Source: Promethearchaeota archaeon | GTDB taxonomy: Archaea > Asgardarchaeota > Lokiarchaeia > Sigyniarchaeales > SOKP01 | Direction: 5' to 3' | Assembly: GCA_030599585.1 (NCBI GenBank) | Contig: JAUVNS010000035.1 | Location: 1 to 14,871, forward strand | DNA: 14,871 bases | Part shown: positions 1-14,871 of the stretch, piece after piece | Position numbering within the stretch: the first letter of the stretch is position 1 | Layout of the letters: each line of letters starts with the position of its first letter | The notes under the pieces: model-generated | Databases searched by the model: none | The model's input: only the letters and a program-made list of their open reading frames with translations | Told to the model about the DNA's origin: nothing | Position numbers and translations under genes: made by a program

Positions 1-2085
1 AATTGCTGAGACAAGATGGAGCTTAAACAACTTTCCATTAGATAATTCTCCCCATAGTTCGACTTTATCGATAAGCGAGATCGTCTTAGGATGCTCTACT
101 AATCGCAGTAAAAAACGATGTTGTACTGCTACGGGTTGCGCGATGAGTGTATGCTCATAGATCACATCAATGCCGTCAATATCGTGTATGTCCAATAATC
201 CTTCTTCAACATATTCTTCACCGTCAAAAACGCTTAAAATCGGGCATCCTCCGCCTCCACCTCCTCCCATGGTTACAAATACGACTTTTGAGGTGTCTTT
301 GTAATTTCCCCGCGCATCATATGCACGACAATGCAATGTATATGAACCACTGCTCCCAACTGCCCAATTCCATACCCAGATATTACTATTTACTATATGG
401 TACGCATCATTCCAAGATCCTGAACCGACTTTAAATTGAACTAAATCTATTCTATAGTTATCAGTAGCTTCAGCCTCACATGGAATTAGACCAGTAGTAG
501 TAACAGATGATCCAGGAGCAGTAATGCTTATAGTTGGCTCTTCTTCATCGCACGCTCCATAAGCGTTTACTAACCCATATCCGTATTTAGGATCCCACCC
601 TTCGGGATCATAATGAACACTGTTGGGGTTATAAGTAGGACTGGTAGGGTTTGAGTATTCATTTATTTGATCTTTGCTTGTCTCTATAAGCGCTTCTCGC
701 ACTTGAGCAGGAGTATATTCTGGATTTTGAGCCAAGATTAAAGCGCAAACACCTGTAACATAAGGTCCTGAAAAAGAAGTGCCAGGACCTGAATAACCGT
801 ATTCACTTCCATTAATTGTTGTATACCCGTTTGTAATTGCCACAACATCCAATTGAGGACCGTAACATGAGCTCGTACTCCGTATATACCCGTCGATGGA
901 CGGATGGATCCAAACAGCTCCTACAGAAATCACCGATGGGTACCTAGCAGGATATGCAATACCAAATGATTCTGGTATTGCATCATGGTTTCCAGTTGGA
1001 GCAATAACCACAATTCCAAGGTCATGTGCAAGGATACATATATTTCTAAGTAGTAAATCATCAACTTGTATTTGAATGTTAACATATATAACATCCATTT
1101 CGTTACTAATGGCCCACTGAATCCCTTGAATAATTGAGGAAATCGCATCAGGATTATCTTTACGATAAACGCGAACGACATATAAACTGACTTTTGGAGC
1201 GACTCCGATATTTCCCTGTCCATCGTCATTTGCGGCAATTATTCCGCATGCTTTAGTTCCGTGCCATTCGTATTCTTCAGTATCAATAGGATCATCGTCG
1301 TTATATGCTGTATCATATCCTCCCTCATATCTGCCCAAAAATGCCGGATGATTATAATCAATTCCTGTGTCTAGAACGCATAATTTTATACCTTCTCCCG
1401 CTTTAACAGGATCAGAAACATTTGTAGCTCCATCTCTTTCTCCCCATACCATTTCGGCATCAATATCATCAACACGAGAAAGATGATCTCGAGATTCATC
1501 ATCGTAATTAATTTCAACATACATTGCATCTACACTTACATGCCCTTCAAATCCCGGAACATCCTGAATATCCGCTACTAACGCAATTTGTAAATTACTA
1601 GCAACAGTATTCAATTCTGACCAAGAGAATGAGGTCCATGCCGGACCAAATGGATCTTGAACTGTTTGCGCGGTTGACCAAACTTCGTCGTTTCCAAACC
1701 TAAACTTGGTAGAAATTTTTGCCCATCCACTATGTAGTATGCTACAAGAAGCGTAAATATGAACGGTGATTGAATATATGGTAACACCGTAGATACCCAT
1801 ATTGTAAATATCTGTTCCATATTCCTCATTCCCTGAAAGGTAATTCTTTACCCCATCAGGAAGATTAGGAGCTATTACCTCTTCATTGATATTTGAAAAA
1901 TCCCCCCATTCAGTTTGAAAATTCCCCGTTGGTCGAAAGATTTTTGTTGTAGCAGAACTTTTTAAATCTGACTCAATTTCATTCTTCTTTATTCCAATAC
2001 CATCATCAATTCTAAATGGAAGGAATAACATCGCTCCAGAAAGAATTAGGATGGTGATAATGACTATTGGTTGTTTAAATTTCAT
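1..2085 (-). CDS. Secreted S8 (subtilisin-like) serine protease with N-terminal extra domain, Ig-like domain and C-terminal G7-CP domain; 3' end lies beyond the window
   Basis: Hand translation from ATG 2085 stays open for 695 codons to the window edge. SD AGGTGA at 2095-2100. Signal-like N-terminus MKFKQPIVIITILILSGAMLFLP. Catalytic motifs: VLDTGID (D239), HGTKACGIIAA (H275), oxyanion PTGN (N366), GTSFSGPYVTG (S437), followed by KYGYGLVNA. Ig-like segment PTISITAP...GSYTLHCRAYDARGN. Confidence 0.95.
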   Translation of the reverse strand, partial: MKFKQPIVIITILILSGAMLFLPFRIDDGIGIKKNEIESDLKSSATTKIFRPTGNFQTEWGDFSNINEEVIAPNLPDGVKNYLSGNEEYGTDIYNMGIYGVTIYSITVHIYASCSILHSGWAKISTKFRFGNDEVWSTAQTVQDPFGPAWTSFSWSELNTVASNLQIALVADIQDVPGFEGHVSVDAMYVEINYDDESRDHLSRVDDIDAEMVWGERDGATNVSDPVKAGEGIKLCVLDTGIDYNHPAFLGRYEGGYDTAYNDDDPIDTEEYEWHGTKACGIIAANDDGQGNIGVAPKVSLYVVRVYRKDNPDAISSIIQGIQWAISNEMDVIYVNIQIQVDDLLLRNICILAHDLGIVVIAPTGNHDAIPESFGIAYPARYPSVISVGAVWIHPSIDGYIRSTSSCYGPQLDVVAITNGYTTINGSEYGYSGPGTSFSGPYVTGVCALILAQNPEYTPAQVREALIETSKDQINEYSNPTSPTYNPNSVHYDPEGWDPKYGYGLVNAYGACDEEEPTISITAPGSSVTTTGLIPCEAEATDNYRIDLVQFKVGSGSWNDAYHIVNSNIWVWNWAVGSSGSYTLHCRAYDARGNYKDTSKVVFVTMGGGGGGGCPILSVFDGEEYVEEGLLDIHDIDGIDVIYEHTLIAQPVAVQHRFLLRLVEHPKTISLIDKVELWGELSNGKLFKLHLVSAI

Positions 2086-6896: not shown

Positions 6897-7272
6897 AATT
6901 CTATTATTGCGAATGGAATATTCTTAATTGGGTGAGGATTCTATGAGTATCAGGATTCCGATCTCAATCTCTCATTCGAGTATTTCCACATATCAAGGAT
7001 ATTTGTAAATTGCGTCCCACACATTGTTGCTGAGCGAATTAATACATCTGGTTCTACTCCTTGTTGTTCAGAATGATAATGAAGTCGCCGATAATCTCTT
7101 TGATTTAGCTCAATTATATATTCAATTTTTTTTTTAGGATGTCTTGGGATAAAAGTCGAAAATTCATTAATCCACCAAATAACATTAACTTTACACATAA
7201 AACAACCCCATTCAATTGCTGCTTTTATGAATTCATCTCGTGATTTCTTGTTGTGAATCGCTTGTTCAGACA
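6897..7272 (-). repeat. Left copy of a 376-bp inverted repeat (partner 13394-13769)
   Basis: Ungapped hand alignment of the reverse complement to 13394-13769 gives about 43 mismatches in 376 (about 89% identity). The repeat includes 53 nt past the stop codon. Confidence 0.95.
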
Positions 7273-7318
7273 CCATTTCTAACTCCTCTTCAGTAAAACG
7301 TAAATAAACTATGTACAT
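6950..7318 (-). CDS. Tandem ribbon-helix-helix (CopG/Arc-like) DNA-binding protein
   Basis: Two strand-helix-helix units: YIVYLRFTEEELEMVSEQAIHNKKSRDEFIKAAIE and YIIELNQRDYRRLHYHSEQQGVEPDVLIRSAT. A second copy lies at 13394-13716. Confidence 0.65.
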   Translation of the reverse strand: MYIVYLRFTEEELEMVSEQAIHNKKSRDEFIKAAIEWGCFMCKVNVIWWINEFSTFIPRHPKKKIEYIIELNQRDYRRLHYHSEQQGVEPDVLIRSATMCGTQFTNILDMWKYSNERLRSES

Positions 7319-7789: not shown

Positions 7790-9577
7790 TTAATCGTTTA
7801 AGATACGACTAAAATAATCTCTTAGACTCTTCAGTTGAATATTTCGCTCCTCATTTGAGTATCCTATCATTCTTAAATTCTCGTTTTTCACGATTATGTC
7901 CTTTAACATTTCAAATAAAACAGGTAATTTACTTATTTCATTTAAATCACTATAATTTATTTCATAATCCGAAAGAAACTCATGTTCAACTAATTGAAAA
8001 TATTCAGAAATCTCTCTCTTTAACCTTTTAAATTTAGCAAAGAATTTCGGATCTTGTTCAACAAGAATTTTTCTCTCTAAGGGATTGTTAATTATATTTT
8101 GGTCGAAAATTTTTTCCTTATTAAGCTGCTCTTCTTCATTCATTGCATTATTCTCCTTAAGCCATAAATCATTATAACGGTTTTGAGCCATAAGAAATGC
8201 TTGGGTTTTTTTTTTCATTTCTAAATCTTCAATCTTAATGAAATCGTCTGTGGATTCATAATTAAGCCAATTTTGCTTTATATCCTTAAGTGAAGAAATA
8301 ATTGCCGAGCGAATCTCTTCCTTTGTTATTAGATTACCATCATTATAAGTTATTATTATTGTATGCAATGGCCAACCTTCTGGGCGACTATATGTCCTTG
8401 CTGTTTTAATCTCAATATTAGAATTAATTTTAGACATTATCAATTTAAAGTCGTCTTCGTCCCACATAAAAAAGGCGTTTTCTAATTTGGGAAGAATTAC
8501 GACTTCATGAATTAATATTTCACCTTTTTTTTGAATTAATTTAAAACTTCCATATAAAAGATCGACACGTTGATTTAAATTCAATTCGTGAAACACATTT
8601 ACAAAGAATACAATATCCGCTTTTTCTACAGCTTCAATATTATCTGAAGGGGGATTATATTTTAATTTGTTAATGGATTTACAGCGACTTTCAATTTCAG
8701 GCCATTTTCCCTTATCTATTTCAATAGGTATATAATTGAATTTTGATACAATCCCACTATTATTAATAGCTTTAACCAAGTCCCCATATCCGGCTCCGAC
8801 ATCGATTATTTTAATTTCTTCTTTTGCGGAAGAATATCTTCCTAAAATAAAAGTTGCTAATTGTTCGATTTGAGGATCACCATCTCTTCGTTTAATTGCA
8901 TCAGGAGCATTAAAACACTCAAGTAAATAAGCCATAACATCATCTGATTTTTTTTTGTCTTCAAACTCTTTTCTATATGTGGTAGATTGCTTTTTAAAGC
9001 TATTTAAAGTTTTATGAAATTTCAAAGAAGATTGATTACTAATTATTCTTTTAATATAAATTGAAAAAATAAACTGATTCATTTTAGTTTGATGATGAAA
9101 ATTATTCTTCTTTATACTATCAAAACCTGAAATAGAAAGATTTATTCCTGAATAATTAATATTTATTAAGGCATTTTCTGTTTTTAATCCCTCCCATTTT
9201 ATCTTTCTAGTAATATTTGGGTTAACTTTTAAAACATAATTATCAATATTTTTAAGATATGTGATTTCCATCACTTGTTTTTTAGAAAATTCTTTTGTTG
9301 GCTCTAAATATAACGAGTAACCATTTTTCAAAGATTCAATATATAGTTTAGGGTCATAATCGGTGTTTTTAAATTTAAAATATTTAAAATCTTCGATATG
9401 ATTTAATAAATCATTGATTATATGAAGAGATTTATGCTCATTTATATTAACCTTAGAAAGTTTTACTGGTCTTTTTAGGTTTCTAACGAAAAGCCTAATT
9501 TGCCCTTTAATTTCTAATTCATTCTCAGAATTTATGCTAAAATTTTCACTTATCATTAATTCCTCAAGCACTAACAT
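7790..9577 (-). CDS. Class I SAM-dependent methyltransferase domain protein with large uncharacterised N- and C-terminal extensions
   Basis: Motif I IIDVGAGYGDL, acidic motif II YIPIEID, motif IV ADIVFFVNVFHEL, and KKGEILIHE. The start may instead be ATG 9556, which is preceded by GAGG. Confidence 0.88.
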   Translation of the reverse strand: MLVLEELMISENFSINSENELEIKGQIRLFVRNLKRPVKLSKVNINEHKSLHIINDLLNHIEDFKYFKFKNTDYDPKLYIESLKNGYSLYLEPTKEFSKKQVMEITYLKNIDNYVLKVNPNITRKIKWEGLKTENALININYSGINLSISGFDSIKKNNFHHQTKMNQFIFSIYIKRIISNQSSLKFHKTLNSFKKQSTTYRKEFEDKKKSDDVMAYLLECFNAPDAIKRRDGDPQIEQLATFILGRYSSAKEEIKIIDVGAGYGDLVKAINNSGIVSKFNYIPIEIDKGKWPEIESRCKSINKLKYNPPSDNIEAVEKADIVFFVNVFHELNLNQRVDLLYGSFKLIQKKGEILIHEVVILPKLENAFFMWDEDDFKLIMSKINSNIEIKTARTYSRPEGWPLHTIIITYNDGNLITKEEIRSAIISSLKDIKQNWLNYESTDDFIKIEDLEMKKKTQAFLMAQNRYNDLWLKENNAMNEEEQLNKEKIFDQNIINNPLERKILVEQDPKFFAKFKRLKREISEYFQLVEHEFLSDYEINYSDLNEISKLPVLFEMLKDIIVKNENLRMIGYSNEERNIQLKSLRDYFSRILND

Positions 9578-9615: not shown

Positions 9616-10740
9616 TTAAGTCTTATTTGAACTTGATCCTCCTCCTCGTTTTGTTGTTTTTCTTCCTCTACCTTTGTTTACACTTGAAGTTAGCTTATTT
9701 TTATATTCTGTGACACCATTTACCATATTTTCTAATTTTTTCTTCACATCTTTACGTAATAACCCTCGTAATCCAATATTAGGTGTAAATATTATTTTTT
9801 TTTTATTCTGGATTAGAAATGGGTTATTTGAAACAAACTTGTCTATAGTTTGTGCAATTATTTGTGGGTCTTCATTTTTTAAATCCGGTTCAAAAGCATT
9901 TATTATACCAATACTATAGTTCTTATAGAAATGATATGAATTAATATAATTAATTTGCTTACTTTTAGCAGAATAATCTCTCAAGCCAGAGATCATAAAT
10001 GCGCATATGTCAATACTATCTCCTAGAATGTTAAGGTCAGCAACATCTTTATTTAATATTGCAGGGGTATAATAAATCCAATTAAATTTTTTTTCGGGAT
10101 ACTCATCATTTATATTATCTATTATTTCTTTAATTAACTTCAAGTCTGTTTTTATCTGAATATTTTTGTAGGCTTCAAAATCATCCAGAACGGGATGATC
10201 TATTTGAATATATCTCCATTCTAAGACTTTTTCTACTGTTTTAGAATATTCAATCAATGATTTTATTGCTGGTATTATTATATGATCCTTAAGAAGAGTC
10301 AAGAATTCCTCATATTCATCCTCCCAATTTAATGGAATAGAGAACCTACTATATAAAGACAATGGTGAGGGAATTACAAATTTTAATTTAGGTTTTGTAG
10401 GATAATTTTTCTTTTCTAAATATTTTTCAGCAAATTCCCATCCTCGTTTAAAACTTCTAACAAAATTAAATTCTTCTGGTTCTACAAATTTTACAATATT
10501 TTCAGTTTCTTTTGGAATCACAATTCGACTATGAAAATTAGGGCATATAATCTCATAAAAATTTAAATATACTTCACTGTTATTATTTGATAAAAATGGT
10601 AAATAATCATCTTGTCGATTCATTAAATAAACTTGTCCGTCAGTTATAATATCTAATTTTAGATCTAATTGAAATTTTATAGCATCTTCAGGCGATCTAA
10701 ATGGAAATGATCCTATAGTAGAAGTTAAAATCTCAATCAT
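9616..10740 (-). CDS. Divergent cobalamin-independent methionine synthase (MetE catalytic-barrel)-fold protein lacking the zinc ligands
   Basis: Landmarks in MetE order: TSTIGSFP, AIKFQLDLKLDIITDGQ, IPSPLSL, YIQIDHP, PQIIAQTI, FTPNIGLRGLLRKDVKKKLENMV. ATGA overlap with the upstream gene. Confidence 0.8.
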   Translation of the reverse strand: MIEILTSTIGSFPFRSPEDAIKFQLDLKLDIITDGQVYLMNRQDDYLPFLSNNNSEVYLNFYEIICPNFHSRIVIPKETENIVKFVEPEEFNFVRSFKRGWEFAEKYLEKKNYPTKPKLKFVIPSPLSLYSRFSIPLNWEDEYEEFLTLLKDHIIIPAIKSLIEYSKTVEKVLEWRYIQIDHPVLDDFEAYKNIQIKTDLKLIKEIIDNINDEYPEKKFNWIYYTPAILNKDVADLNILGDSIDICAFMISGLRDYSAKSKQINYINSYHFYKNYSIGIINAFEPDLKNEDPQIIAQTIDKFVSNNPFLIQNKKKIIFTPNIGLRGLLRKDVKKKLENMVNGVTEYKNKLTSSVNKGRGRKTTKRGGGSSSNKT

Positions 10741-11678
10741 GGATTTTTACCTGAAATAATATCTGTTTTTTGATCTAAAACATCAATAAATGACTCAAAA
10801 TCTAATATTCCAGTATTTTGTAAATTATCATACTCGAGCCAAAATGGTAGAAATTGGAGGATTTTCGATTTTTCCTCATTTGGATAATCCCTATCTCCAT
10901 TTGTACGTTTTTCATTATTTTTATCAATGTTAAAAAAATTTATCCAATATAGAAAATTTAATAAGTCAATTATTTTTATTGGAATATCTACATCCCATAT
11001 TACTTTTCTCATATCGTCCTCTATTATTGGGACAATATATAATGTATAAATTTCATCCTTTTGCCAGTATCGATTATATCTTATGTGTTCTTTTATAATG
11101 TGTGCTAGATTATCCTCAAAACTCTTAGCAGCCTGATAAGTGCTTATATGTAATAAATATCTTGAACCTGAGCGCAAGAGAATATCTTGATTACTATTTC
11201 GAACTTGATAACCTATCAATGAGCAATAAGCACATGAAAATTTTAGGAATAATTTTAGAATTTTAGTTGAATAATTCCCATATTTTTTTTGTTTTGTTCT
11301 TGAATAATAGATCTTCTTGACTATATCTTCAATTTCTAAAATTTGATTGTTTAAATTTATTTTTGGGGGAATTTTATACCATTCAAAATACTTGTCATAA
11401 AAATCTGATTGTTCGGCTACTTGCTCGAAGATTCCTTCATTAAGTATATAGTAGGTTTTTTCAGCTTCTACATCGAATTCAGTATTGACTAAATTATACT
11501 TTTCAAAAGTACGCAATAAGTTAAGAGGCTTGACACCAGTATAATCTTCGATTTTTTCTTCTGTTAATATATCAGGGAAAATTTTTGAATTATATAAAAG
11601 GAGTAAAATTGTTTTTGCGTCATTATTAGAGATTGCTCCGTTTATGGTTGACATTTCTTTTTTTGATAAATTTACCAT
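10737..11678 (-). CDS. N-terminal winged-HTH protein with a C-terminal degenerate PD-(D/E)XK-like domain
   Basis: N-terminal pattern AISNNDAKTILLLLY...LTEEKIEDYTGVK...FEKYNLV...KTYYILNE. C-terminal pattern LIGYQV...DILL...LLHIST...EHI...YTLYIVPII. SD GGGTGA upstream. The ORF is secure; the domain calls are tentative. Confidence 0.6.
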   Translation of the reverse strand: MVNLSKKEMSTINGAISNNDAKTILLLLYNSKIFPDILTEEKIEDYTGVKPLNLLRTFEKYNLVNTEFDVEAEKTYYILNEGIFEQVAEQSDFYDKYFEWYKIPPKINLNNQILEIEDIVKKIYYSRTKQKKYGNYSTKILKLFLKFSCAYCSLIGYQVRNSNQDILLRSGSRYLLHISTYQAAKSFEDNLAHIIKEHIRYNRYWQKDEIYTLYIVPIIEDDMRKVIWDVDIPIKIIDLLNFLYWINFFNIDKNNEKRTNGDRDYPNEEKSKILQFLPFWLEYDNLQNTGILDFESFIDVLDQKTDIISGKNP

Positions 11679-11695: not shown

Positions 11696-12964
11696 TTACG
11701 TACCAGATCCAGGATCATTAATATATTTGATTTGATCTTCTGTCAATTTATCAATTTCAATCCCCATTGAATCTAATTTTAGACGTCCAACTTCATTGTC
11801 AATTTCTTCAGGGACTTTAATCATACTAGGGCTTAGAAAATCTTTATTTTTTACAATATATTCAGACATAAGGCATTGTAGGGAGAATGACATGTCCATG
11901 ACTTCGCTCGGATGTCCTTCAGAAAGAATAAGATTTGCTAATCTACCCTCTGCTAAGAGATAAACTCGTTTTCCACTGGGAAAGACTAATTCTTCAACAT
12001 TACTACGAATTGGATTGATCTTTTTTGCGAATTTATATAATTCTTCAGTAGGAATTTCGACATTAAAATGTCCTAAATTACCTAATATAACTCCATCTTT
12101 GAGAGATTCAAATATTTCTTTCGTAGGTTGAATGACGTCTTTACAACCCGTTGCAGTTAGAATTATATCAGCATTAGGTAATGCTTTAGCAATAGGCACT
12201 ACTTGAAAACCAGCAAATCTTGCTTGAAGCGCTTTTATCGGATCAATCTCAGTTACAATTACAATTGCACCCAAACCTCTTGCCTTTAATGCCATACCAG
12301 AAGAACAATGACCATATCCTGCAATTATAACAGTTTTGCCTGCGAATAAGACATGCATACCATATATCGCAGAAACAATTCCTTGCCCCGTGCCTAATTC
12401 ATTATCAAATTGATTCTTACAGCGTGCATCATTAACAGGGAATAAAGGAACCTTCAAATGCCCCGTTTTTTCCATTGCTTCGAATCTTTTCACCCCTGTT
12501 GTAGTTTCTTCTTGACAACCTATTATTGTTCCATTAGTTATAAGTTCTGGAAATTCTTTATGAGCTGTATAGATCAAGTCAGCACCATCATCAATTAAAA
12601 TATTAGGTTTAAATTTTAGACATTCCCGAATACACCAATAAAATTCATCATTATTACTTCCATACCACGCGAAAACATTAATCCCTTCCTTTACAAGAGC
12701 AGCAGCAACATCATCTTGAGTTGATAATGGATTACTTCCACATAAAATGACTTTTGCTCCTCCAGCTTTTAGGGTTCGTGCAAGTATCCCCGTCTCTTTT
12801 GTTACATGAAGGCAACCTGCAATAATTATACTCTCTAAAGGTTTTTCCTTCTTAAACCTTTCTCGAATGACTTTTCCAGTCACAGGCATTTTATTTTCAG
12901 CGAAATATAGCGCTTCTTTTCCTTTTTTAAACAAATCTTCTTTTGCAATCTTAAACTTTACCAA
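11696..12964 (-). CDS. ahcY: Adenosylhomocysteinase (SAH hydrolase)
   Basis: GCLHVTKET, GSNPLSTQDDVAAAL, DDGADL, EETTTGV, VNDARCKNQFDN, GHFNVEI, EGRLANL, GHPSEVMDMSF. The TTG start is supported by the conserved N-terminal helix before MP. Confidence 0.97.
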   Translation of the reverse strand: MVKFKIAKEDLFKKGKEALYFAENKMPVTGKVIRERFKKEKPLESIIIAGCLHVTKETGILARTLKAGGAKVILCGSNPLSTQDDVAAALVKEGINVFAWYGSNNDEFYWCIRECLKFKPNILIDDGADLIYTAHKEFPELITNGTIIGCQEETTTGVKRFEAMEKTGHLKVPLFPVNDARCKNQFDNELGTGQGIVSAIYGMHVLFAGKTVIIAGYGHCSSGMALKARGLGAIVIVTEIDPIKALQARFAGFQVVPIAKALPNADIILTATGCKDVIQPTKEIFESLKDGVILGNLGHFNVEIPTEELYKFAKKINPIRSNVEELVFPSGKRVYLLAEGRLANLILSEGHPSEVMDMSFSLQCLMSEYIVKNKDFLSPSMIKVPEEIDNEVGRLKLDSMGIEIDKLTEDQIKYINDPGSGT

Positions 12965-13100: not shown

Positions 13101-13400
13101 TGGTACATTCAACCGAAGGATACATATTTAAGGTACCTTTTAGATATTTTTGATCAACGGGTTACACTTACCTTTAAAGATCAAATTTATAACGAAATCT
13201 TGTATTACATGACAGACTTAATCGTTGAACATTATGCCCCAATTCCAGGGAAAGGGATAGAACTTCTCAGGAGAATTTATAAGGTGTTATCCTCTCAAGG
13301 AGAATTAATTCATAAAAACATTGTTAAAATATGTCAATCTCAGTTTGATAAGAACTACATGGTGGATGAATTCACAGCGTTTTATACAATAGCTGTTTGA
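13101..13400 (+). pseudogene. Fragment resembling the AAA+ lid region of Cdc6/Orc1-like proteins
   Basis: The frame is open from 13101 (after a TAG): LLDIFDQRVTLTFKDQIYNEILYYMTDLIVEHYAPIPGKGIELLRRIY, which echoes the L.DIL..R...AF......E.L..IAD.......AR.AI.LLR lid pattern. No Walker A/B region is present. Confidence 0.45.
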
Positions 13401-13716
13401 ACAAGCCATTTATAACAACAAATCACTAGATGAATTCATAAAAGCAGCAATTAAGTGGGTTTTTTTTATATGTAAAGCTAAAATTATTTGGTGGATTAAT
13501 GAATTTTCACCTTTTATCCCAAAACATCCTAAAAAAATTATTGATTATATGATTGAGCTATCTCAAAGAGATTATCGGCGACTCTATTATCATTTTGAAC
13601 ATCAAGGAGTAGAACCATGTGTATTAATTCGTTCAGCAACAATGTGTTCGATGCAATTTACAAATATCCTTGATATGTGGAATTACTCGAATGAGCGATT
13701 AAGATCGGAATCCTAA
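13393..13716 (+). pseudogene. 5'-truncated paralog of the tandem-RHH gene 6950-7318
   Basis: Open frame LFEQAIYNNKSLDEFIKAAIKW...MWNYSNERLRSES* is preceded by an in-frame TAG (13390-13392). It lacks the first ~15 codons, including the start and the first beta-strand. Most differences from the left copy are non-synonymous. Confidence 0.85.
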
Positions 13717-13769
13717 TACTCGTAGAAACCTCACCCAGTTAAGAACATTCCATTCGTAAAAATAGAATT
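13394..13769 (+). repeat. Right copy of the 376-bp inverted repeat (partner 6897-7272)
   Basis: Direct ungapped alignment, about 89% identity. Confidence 0.95.
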
Positions 13770-14370: not shown

Positions 14371-14871
14371 ATGAAAGAATTTATATTTTCTTTTAATTAC
14401 TCGGGCTATATTTCTACGGGAGTTGAAAAAATTGATGAAAAAACACTTACTTTGAATGATTTATTTACCATAAATAAAAAACGAGTAATTGATTTTTGTA
14501 AGGAGATGACCAAAAGGAAAATTAATTTAAAATGGAAATGTATGGGCAGAATAGATCAAATTGATGAGGAAATGATTGATAAAATGCAGAAATCTGGTTG
14601 TATCCAAATAAGTTTTGGAATTGAATCCTTAAATCAAAAATCTTTAGACCGAATTAATAAGGAAATAAATATTCATAAAATTAAAAAGGCTATTAAAGCT
14701 TGTCATGATGTTGGTATTTTAGTAACTTTATATTTTATTTTGGGTTTTCCTTGGGAAACAAAAAAGGATTTTAAAGGATTTTTAAATTCATTAAAAGAAT
14801 TAGACGAATGTAATTTAGTATTTGGAATGTTAGTACCCTATCCAGGAACAGAATTTTATGAAAATCAAGAA
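14371..14871 (+). CDS. C-terminal half of a B12-binding-family (class B type) radical SAM protein; N-terminally truncated and running off the window
   Basis: Open for 167 codons from ATG 14371: NDLFTINKKRVIDFC...WKCMGRIDQIDEEMIDKMQKSGCIQISFGIESLNQKSLDRINK...FILGFPWET...VPYPGTEFY. No CxxxCxxC lies upstream in this frame. Confidence 0.85.
   Translation, partial: MKEFIFSFNYSGYISTGVEKIDEKTLTLNDLFTINKKRVIDFCKEMTKRKINLKWKCMGRIDQIDEEMIDKMQKSGCIQISFGIESLNQKSLDRINKEINIHKIKKAIKACHDVGILVTLYFILGFPWETKKDFKGFLNSLKELDECNLVFGMLVPYPGTEFYENQE

Follow-up and report, generated by a model that had tools for sequence, protein, structure and literature searches.

The stretch of DNA analysed here, in the following called the window, comprises 14,871 nucleotides and forms the whole of C16, a short, 14.9-kb accessory contig of a 4.85-Mb genome bin of archaeal type. 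Its central subject is P0001, a protein encoded on the minus strand by an intact open reading frame (ORF) of exactly 374 codons. Judged from its predicted structure, P0001 is a MetE-fold protein of the catalytic (C-terminal) barrel type, and it appears to be a maintained, zinc-free offshoot of that barrel which has kept the pocket for the amino-acid end of homocysteine. It would be unable to form the zinc-thiolate that is used by all known MetE/Mes methionine synthases. We tentatively propose that P0001 is a sensor subunit which binds homocysteine or S-adenosylhomocysteine (SAH), belongs to a winged helix-turn-helix (wHTH) partner protein and works alongside SAH cleavage, a reading that we prefer while granting it somewhat less than an even chance.

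By sequence, the relationship of P0001 to MetE is remote. None of the curated cut-offs for the catalytic barrel families of MetE/Mes is reached: the match to Pfam Meth_synt_2 (PF01717; E=0.016, 15 bits) lies under the 21-bit cut-off, and the same holds for the NCBIfam models PRK04326 (archaeal methionine synthase; E=1e-8, 34.8 bits, cut-off 406) and PRK00957 (E=3e-6, 26.6 bits, cut-off 258). Comparison of the single sequence against PDB sequences gave chance matches to RhoA only, and a word-indexed homologue search with P0001 as lone query returned nothing except the query itself. By structure, however, the relationship is clear. The AlphaFold2 (AF2) model, computed from a 12-sequence alignment, contains eight beta-alpha units at a predicted local distance difference test score (pLDDT) of 81.5 and a predicted template-modelling score of 0.85. 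Its best Foldseek matches are MetE entries (E ~3e-12 to 1e-10, with 1t7l and 4ztx at ~3e-12), and VIA-align superposes ~289 residues on the C-terminal catalytic barrels of MetE from A. thaliana, S. mutans and T. maritima and on MesD (3rpd) with Z of 25-26 and a root-mean-square deviation of 2.7-2.9 Å. The model and both structural comparisons agree with the fold that an original prediction, made by eye, had assigned to the protein, and the ESM Atlas neighbours are Meth_synt_2 clusters (TM 0.66-0.71). VIA-align Z is lower for the MetE N-terminal barrel (21.9), UROD (~21) and an MtaA-like chain (4ay7, ~20). A barrel of the UROD/MtaA type was rejected on the basis of these values and of the lack of a Pfam URO-D match.

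The catalytic-type (beta-alpha)8 barrel takes up residues 1-352 and is followed by a disordered, basic tail rich in Gly and Arg (residues ~353-374, window 9616-9680; KGRGRKTTKRGGGSSSNKT, pLDDT <50). A tail of the KGRGRKTTKRGGGSSSNKT type is present in none of the seven relatives described below (7/7, P0002 included). The motifs quoted in the original prediction, IGSFP (residue 9), TDGQ (33), IQIDHP (178), WIYYTP (221), CAFMIS (246), PNIGL (320) and KLENMV (335), are all found in the protein. The coordinates given there mark exactly this reading frame, although its minus strand had gone unmentioned.

In MetE, the zinc ion is held by His618, Cys620, Glu642 and Cys704 (T. maritima numbering; H641, C643, E665 and C726 in E. 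coli), which are located at the end of beta5 and in its loop, at the end of beta6 and in the loop after beta8 (PMC539065, PMC7857596). In the AF2 model of P0001, the corresponding strands comprise residues 220-225 (beta5, NWIYYT), 245-249 (beta6) and 315-320 (beta8). The HMMER family profile sets its 'itPngGlkG' on 'PDCGLK' and 'PQCGF' of the MetEs in the PDB, so that the last ligand Cys corresponds to Ile322; alignment with MAFFT gives the same substitution of PDCG by PNIG. The ligand Glu falls on M249 when P0001 is aligned by MAFFT with zinc-bearing short MetEs, and the HxC motif falls on YYTP, where the register differs by 1-4 residues across alignments. This uncertainty is irrelevant, since Cys and His are missing altogether from the segment 183-245 of P0001; the complete inventory of these two residues in the protein is C66, H70, H153, H182, C246 and H270. 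Profile alignment, MAFFT and this inventory together bear out the claim that the zinc-ligand positions have been replaced, including the individual readings of the Glu-bearing strand as CAFMIS and of PDCGL as PNIGL and, within the uncertainty of register, that of HxC as YYT. Among the eight zinc-less proteins of the family (P0001 and its seven relatives), the HxC stretch reads YYT, YYS, HYT, LYT, YYA or CYA and the PDCG equivalent PNIG, PNSG, PRGG, PYGG, PTGG or PMVG, and no column of their alignment holds an invariant Cys or His. Going by these alignments, the canonical MetE zinc site is gone from P0001, and with it residues essential to the ancestral reaction.

One might still envisage that P0001 is a methionine synthase whose zinc, or other metal, is held by Tyr, Asp, the backbone or a partner protein. 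Tyr, Asn and Asp do occasionally act as zinc ligands in Mes proteins (PMC7857596), and an invariant tyrosine (Y224) and two acidic residues (D44 and D187) lie near the site. We nevertheless consider such a synthase very unlikely, given that all four ligand positions have changed together, to Y/T/P, M and I, that Pro, Met/Phe and Ile/Gly are incapable of coordinating zinc, that the family lacks any invariant Cys or His, and that the genome holds other candidates for this activity. One of these is a PRK06052-type core MetE of 350 aa with a PDCG motif (C9 79799-80851, equal to L007 1156-2208; E=1.4e-71), probably the genome's own corrinoid-type methionine synthase, which reads H-L-H at the HxC position and has a long insertion ahead of beta8. 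At C22 230044-231585, a MetH-like homocysteine-binding methyltransferase domain (303-aa frame) adjoins a protein with a B12-binding domain (corrinoid), a pair that looks like a split MetH-type system. Because these candidates exist on C9 and C22, P0001 is probably not needed as the methionine synthase of the cell. Two genomes of the same phylum (G308, G307) carry tandem duplicates of a core MetE gene of the zinc-bearing type (317 and 324 aa), at L012 1486-3495 and L013 422-2430.

MetE contacts the amino-acid end of homocysteine through three side chains, S433, E484 and D599 in E. coli, equal to Ser411, Glu462 and Asp577 in T. maritima (PMC7857596, PMC539065). Their equivalents in P0001 are S11, Q36 and D181. 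The Ser is invariant in the eight members, the Asp is present in seven of them (Glu in the eighth), and the Glu is replaced by an invariant Gln. This Gln is compatible with homocysteine binding, because it is also found in the zinc-bearing short MetE P0005 (see below) and in the core MetE on C9. All eight members have 22 invariant positions in common, 15 of which lie on the catalytic face (hypergeometric P=2.8e-6), taken as the last two residues of each strand and the following seven (80 of the 374 residues of P0001). At the remodelled site, the residues Y38, D44, D187, Y224, P226 and F248 are invariant and specific to the family. As far as alignment can tell, the conservation of the pocket speaks for continued binding of a homocysteine-like amino acid. 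It also makes a scaffold, which the original prediction had offered beside a ligand sensor, the least likely role.

The retained contacts equally bear on the idea that P0001 is the pterin/folate-binding half, of the N-terminal-barrel type, of a split MetE whose zinc-bearing subunit is encoded elsewhere, for example on C9, where a catalytic-type core MetE is indeed present. Split MetEs with a zinc-less second barrel that is hard to recognise are known, and frequent, in archaea (PMC7857596, PMC13759103). However, the MetE N-terminal barrel has lost homocysteine binding, whereas P0001 has kept the contacts; its Z of 25-26 to catalytic barrels stands against 21.9 to the N-terminal one; and Meth_synt_1 (PF08267) has no match in P0001, in any of the eight family members or in the rest of the genome, while four of the eight weakly match Meth_synt_2. 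Moreover, the pairs of archaeal split MetE are almost always encoded by adjacent genes (PMC7857596), yet neither in the window nor at any other locus examined does a catalytic subunit or any zinc-bearing MetE gene stand beside the barrel gene, and the C9 gene lies on another contig. We therefore regard a split-MetE half as improbable.

Proteins of this kind are very rare. When 1.84 billion cluster representatives were searched exhaustively with phmmer, five other proteins were returned at E<=1e-3, namely P0002 (the closest relative of P0001, 41% identity), P0003, P0004, P0006 and P0005, the last of which is an ordinary short MetE with HxC and PDCG and the nearest zinc-bearing relative of P0001. 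P0007, P0008 and P0009 came from a profile search of 5.8 billion proteins and bring the zinc-less family to eight members, all without zinc ligands. P0004 and P0006 to P0009 constitute group A, and use of the group A alignment as query led to two further loci, L019 and L020. No homologue of P0001 was found in 60 related genomes, a phylum-wide profile search of 400 genomes met canonical zinc-bearing core MetEs only, pattern scans of 185,579 GTDB reference genomes detected no family member besides that of the present genome, and plasmids, phages and IMG/VR gave no match. In a maximum-likelihood tree, a branch with 100/99 support separates the eight zinc-less proteins, as one clade, from the rest; with an outgroup of four zinc-bearing relatives, a small sample, this topology is consistent with the zinc ligands having been lost a single time.

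Rarity, a short accessory contig and absence from the 60 related genomes are what one would expect of a decaying relic or an annotation artefact without function, and eight members among billions of proteins are few. This explanation is largely refuted, however, and we give it next to no credence. Across the family the ORFs are intact and of constant length at 19-41% identity to P0001, conservation centres on the catalytic face of a confidently modelled fold, and gene order and the tight upstream junction are conserved (see below). For the barrel genes of loci L018 and L019 (67% amino-acid identity), we obtained dN of 0.21-0.23, dS of 1.1-1.9 and dN/dS of ~0.11-0.19, a value to be taken as supportive rather than exact because dS is near saturation and the pair lies outside the subgroup of the window; the adjoining AhcY genes have dN/dS of ~0.06-0.07. 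The estimate is limited to this one pair, dS being saturated in more distant ones. The barrel family is under purifying selection and the gene is maintained, not an isolated decayed copy. There is thus no sign of neutral decay, in line with the maintained role that the original prediction had assumed.

Further insight comes from the genes around the barrel. In the window, it is part of a same-strand run in the order adenosylhomocysteinase (AhcY), 313-aa gene (the upstream partner), barrel and 595-aa methyltransferase-like gene, the last of which begins 38 nt downstream of the barrel gene. Its product has weak Pfam matches (Methyltransf_12/32/2, E 0.04-0.07) and the motif I-like stretch IIDVGAGYGD. 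An inverted repeat of 385 nt (88% complementary) brackets exactly these four genes, and the three non-AhcY genes have no homologue in the 60 related genomes; the run is an accessory island. Most of a 122-aa ribbon-helix-helix-like ORF (6950-7318, weak DUF6290 match) is spanned by the left repeat arm. The AhcY of the window is an extra copy: the second AhcY gene of the genome (C40 53865-55127) is 77% identical to it, and among the congeners, 23 have a match, in each case a single one (76-83% identical to the window AhcY), a second copy not being seen in them. Towards the full-length copies of the congeners the window AhcY is about equidistant (76-79% identity), whereas it shares only 48-50% identity with the AhcYs of group A.

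AhcY adjoins the barrel gene at six loci, i.e. in the window and at L010, L017, L018, L019 and L020. The latter five carry the group A operon, in which genes for a ~250-aa protein of membrane-associated look (hydrophobic N-terminus), a ~350-aa ParA/CbiA-like P-loop ATPase and a ~420-aa protein without assigned family precede the barrel and AhcY genes. At L009 (P0003), a gene for a 452-aa protein is followed by the barrel and by an amidohydrolase in place of AhcY; the best family match of this amidohydrolase includes methylthioadenosine (MTA)/SAH and 5'-deoxyadenosine deaminases (E=6e-141, below cut-off), which suggests that it probably degrades SAH. The contig of P0002 has its genes in the same order as the window, namely a partial 317-aa gene, a 312-aa gene (P0011) and the barrel. 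At each of the seven loci with nucleotide sequence, the barrel gene closely meets its upstream neighbour: the two overlap by 4 nt in the window (ATGA, made up of the TGA of the 313-aa gene and the ATG of the barrel) and at L017, L018, L019 and L020, and are separated by 1-2 nt at L009 and L010. Since the AhcY of the window resembles that of its own lineage and is only distantly related to those of group A, the association with SAH cleavage was probably assembled more than once, separately in different lineages, as far as the sequences tell, and a functional link with SAH cleavage is thereby strengthened. The strongest clues had not been remarked upon in the original prediction: the barrel gene recurrently neighbours a gene for AhcY or for a deaminase of the SAH type, and it closely abuts or overlaps the gene of a wHTH protein upstream. 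None of the genes in the two operon types was recognised by PADLOC as part of a defence system. The hosts of the five-gene operon at L010, L017, L018 and L019 have 39-50% GC; L010 begins with a fragment of a PfkB-family kinase, and an ABC-F-type ATPase flanks L017.

The sole homologue of the 313-aa partner is P0011 (312 aa), the product of the gene upstream of P0002. Its AF2 model, based on these two sequences, has a pLDDT of 42, with residues 1-92 at 55-78; these residues have the layout H-H-H-beta-beta that is typical of a winged helix. Because AF2 failed past this N-terminal domain, a nuclease-like C-terminus can be named as a language-model lead only: the neighbours of the 313-aa partner and of a 431-aa partner of group A are clusters of FokI-cleavage/Mrr-type nucleases, often with a wHTH domain, at scores of only 0.83-0.88, which by the rating of the tool count as leads. 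Neither BLASTP nor hhalign linked the 313-aa partner by homology to the partners of group A (~420 aa) or L009 (452 aa); the one hint of kinship is a weak match (E ~0.1) of the L009 partner to those of group A in their C-terminal parts.

From these observations, we propose that P0001 may act in a small accessory module together with an SAH-cleaving enzyme, here the extra copy of AhcY. It would bind homocysteine, or the homocysteine moiety of SAH, and would thereby supply the wHTH protein encoded by the overlapping gene with a ligand-binding subunit. In such a putative complex, it could report or gate methyl-cycle status for the module, without methylating homocysteine. A conceptual parallel is SahR, a single polypeptide in which a catalytically silent, methyltransferase-like domain senses SAH and controls ahcY and other genes of the methyl cycle. 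What is shared is the concept of a silent sensor domain derived from an enzyme, and it is an analogy only; unlike in SahR, the putative sensor would be a MetE barrel and a separate polypeptide encoded immediately downstream. SahR-type SAH-responsive regulators have been described by comparative genomics (PMC4239095).

Several points weigh against this proposal. The wHTH assignment of the partner comes from a low-confidence model and from weak Pfam matches in the group A partners, and hhalign failed to detect homology of the 313-aa partner to its ~420-aa counterparts in group A. The L018/L019 pair used for dN/dS, with its dS near saturation, belongs to group A and not to the subgroup of the window. 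His residues conserved within group A (at positions equivalent to 123, 191, 269 and 317 of P0001) could build another metal site there. Conservation of the pocket would be expected of an enzyme no less than of a sensor, and sequence cannot separate the two. Hence, of the original suggestion that the gene is maintained for a non-catalytic or changed role, the maintenance and the change of role have held up, given the eight-member clade, dN/dS, the conserved catalytic face and the gene order, whereas a non-catalytic nature is not established.

An enzyme independent of zinc, acting on homocysteine or a homocysteine thioether, for example by S-alkylation in which the invariant tyrosines stabilise the thiolate, is accordingly the alternative to be taken most seriously, although we judge it to be somewhat less probable than the sensor. 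Hydrolysis of SAH by AhcY is thermodynamically unfavourable, and such an enzyme would remove the homocysteine made by AhcY and let the reaction run. The homocysteine contacts are kept, the new invariant residues Y38, D44, D187, Y224 and P226 lie on the catalytic face, the pairing of AhcY with a MetE-like protein in one operon mirrors two consecutive steps of the methyl cycle, and the methyltransferase-like gene of the window operon would produce SAH. However, no cofactor-binding motif was found in P0001, the group A operons contain no recognisable methyl-donor protein, and genes of metabolic enzymes do not usually overlap that of a DNA-binding-type partner. Furthermore, zinc is used by all characterised homocysteine methyltransferases, of whatever fold: MetE, MetH, BHMT and MesA-D (PMC539065, PMC7857596).

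A more specific version may be conceived by analogy, in which Y38, Y224 and the acidic residues take over from zinc the task of positioning or activating the thiol, and the module, with AhcY or the SAH deaminase, clears SAH for the methyltransferase of the island or for the DNA-binding partner. Glutathione transferases, which treat the thiol of glutathione in this manner, offer a model for it. We think this version unlikely.

How P0001 differs from known systems is best seen by comparison with the core single-barrel synthases (MesA or the catalytic subunit of split MetE; PRK00957, PRK04326). These resemble P0001 in length and in having a (beta-alpha)8 barrel of the catalytic type, share with it the N-terminal GS, DG(E/Q), K-x-x-x-x-x-P and QxD and the C-terminal P-x-x-G-x-x-G motifs, and are its best sequence matches, yet at scores far under the cut-offs (35 vs 406 bits). 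In P0001, by contrast, the four zinc ligands are replaced, Y38, D44, Y224 and P226 are newly invariant, and the neighbours are AhcY and the wHTH partner instead of the corrinoid or Wood-Ljungdahl genes found near core synthases. The two-barrel MetEs (T. maritima 1T7L/1XDJ, A. thaliana 1U1H) are the best structural matches, by their C-terminal barrel (Z 25-26), and have the homocysteine-binding Ser and Asp in common with P0001, which differs from them in lacking an N-terminal barrel and a zinc site and is only 14-19% identical.

Zinc-less members of the MetE family have been described before, namely the MetE N-terminal barrel and MesB-like proteins of Chloroflexales (PMC7857596). Both persist, like P0001, despite loss of the metal site; the N-terminal barrel has also lost homocysteine binding and matches Meth_synt_1, whereas the P0001 family has kept the homocysteine contacts and has no Meth_synt_1 match. 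The Chloroflexales proteins, which we compared by their description, belong to the MesB family, and in the parts of the source drawn on here neither a function nor a link to AhcY is reported for them. As these precedents are described there, neither combines a catalytic-type barrel, retained homocysteine contacts and synteny with AhcY. In the literature, we found no description of a zinc-less clade of catalytic-type MetE or of its operon.

If P0001 binds its ligand without turnover, a MetE barrel would have been reused as a sensor of methyl-cycle metabolites; if it turns the ligand over, metal-free chemistry on homocysteine would result. Either way, the barrel and its small operon are a defined and expressible setting in which to learn how accessory islands manage SAH, these islands carrying AhcY, a wHTH protein and the barrel together with a methyltransferase-like gene or a ParA-like ATPase. 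With eight members found, the rarity of the family limits its general reach.

Table 1. Location and assignment of the features of the accessory island in the window.
Feature	Position	Strand	Remarks
MetE-fold protein P0001, predicted to be zinc-free	9616..10740	-	374 aa; ORF, AF2 model, family clade
Upstream partner gene	10737..11678	-	313 aa; N-terminal region winged-helix-like; TGA overlaps barrel ATG
AhcY, first gene of the run, extra copy	11696..12964	-	422 aa; TIGR00936, 505 bits, above cut-off
595-aa protein, class I S-adenosylmethionine (SAM)-methyltransferase-like core at ~236-362	7790..9577	-	weak Pfam matches, motif I-like
Inverted repeat, left arm	6897..7281		385 nt, 88% complementary
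Inverted repeat, right arm	13385..13769		385 nt, 88% complementary

The GC content of the contig is 30.6%, that of the genome bin 32.6%. At one end of the window (1-2085, minus strand) lies the gene of a large secreted subtilisin-like (S8) protease, which runs past the contig end and in which a Gly7-Cys junction precedes an additional C-terminal domain. At the other end (14371-14871, plus strand), the 5' part of a gene for a radical SAM protein is divergent from the side of the operon.

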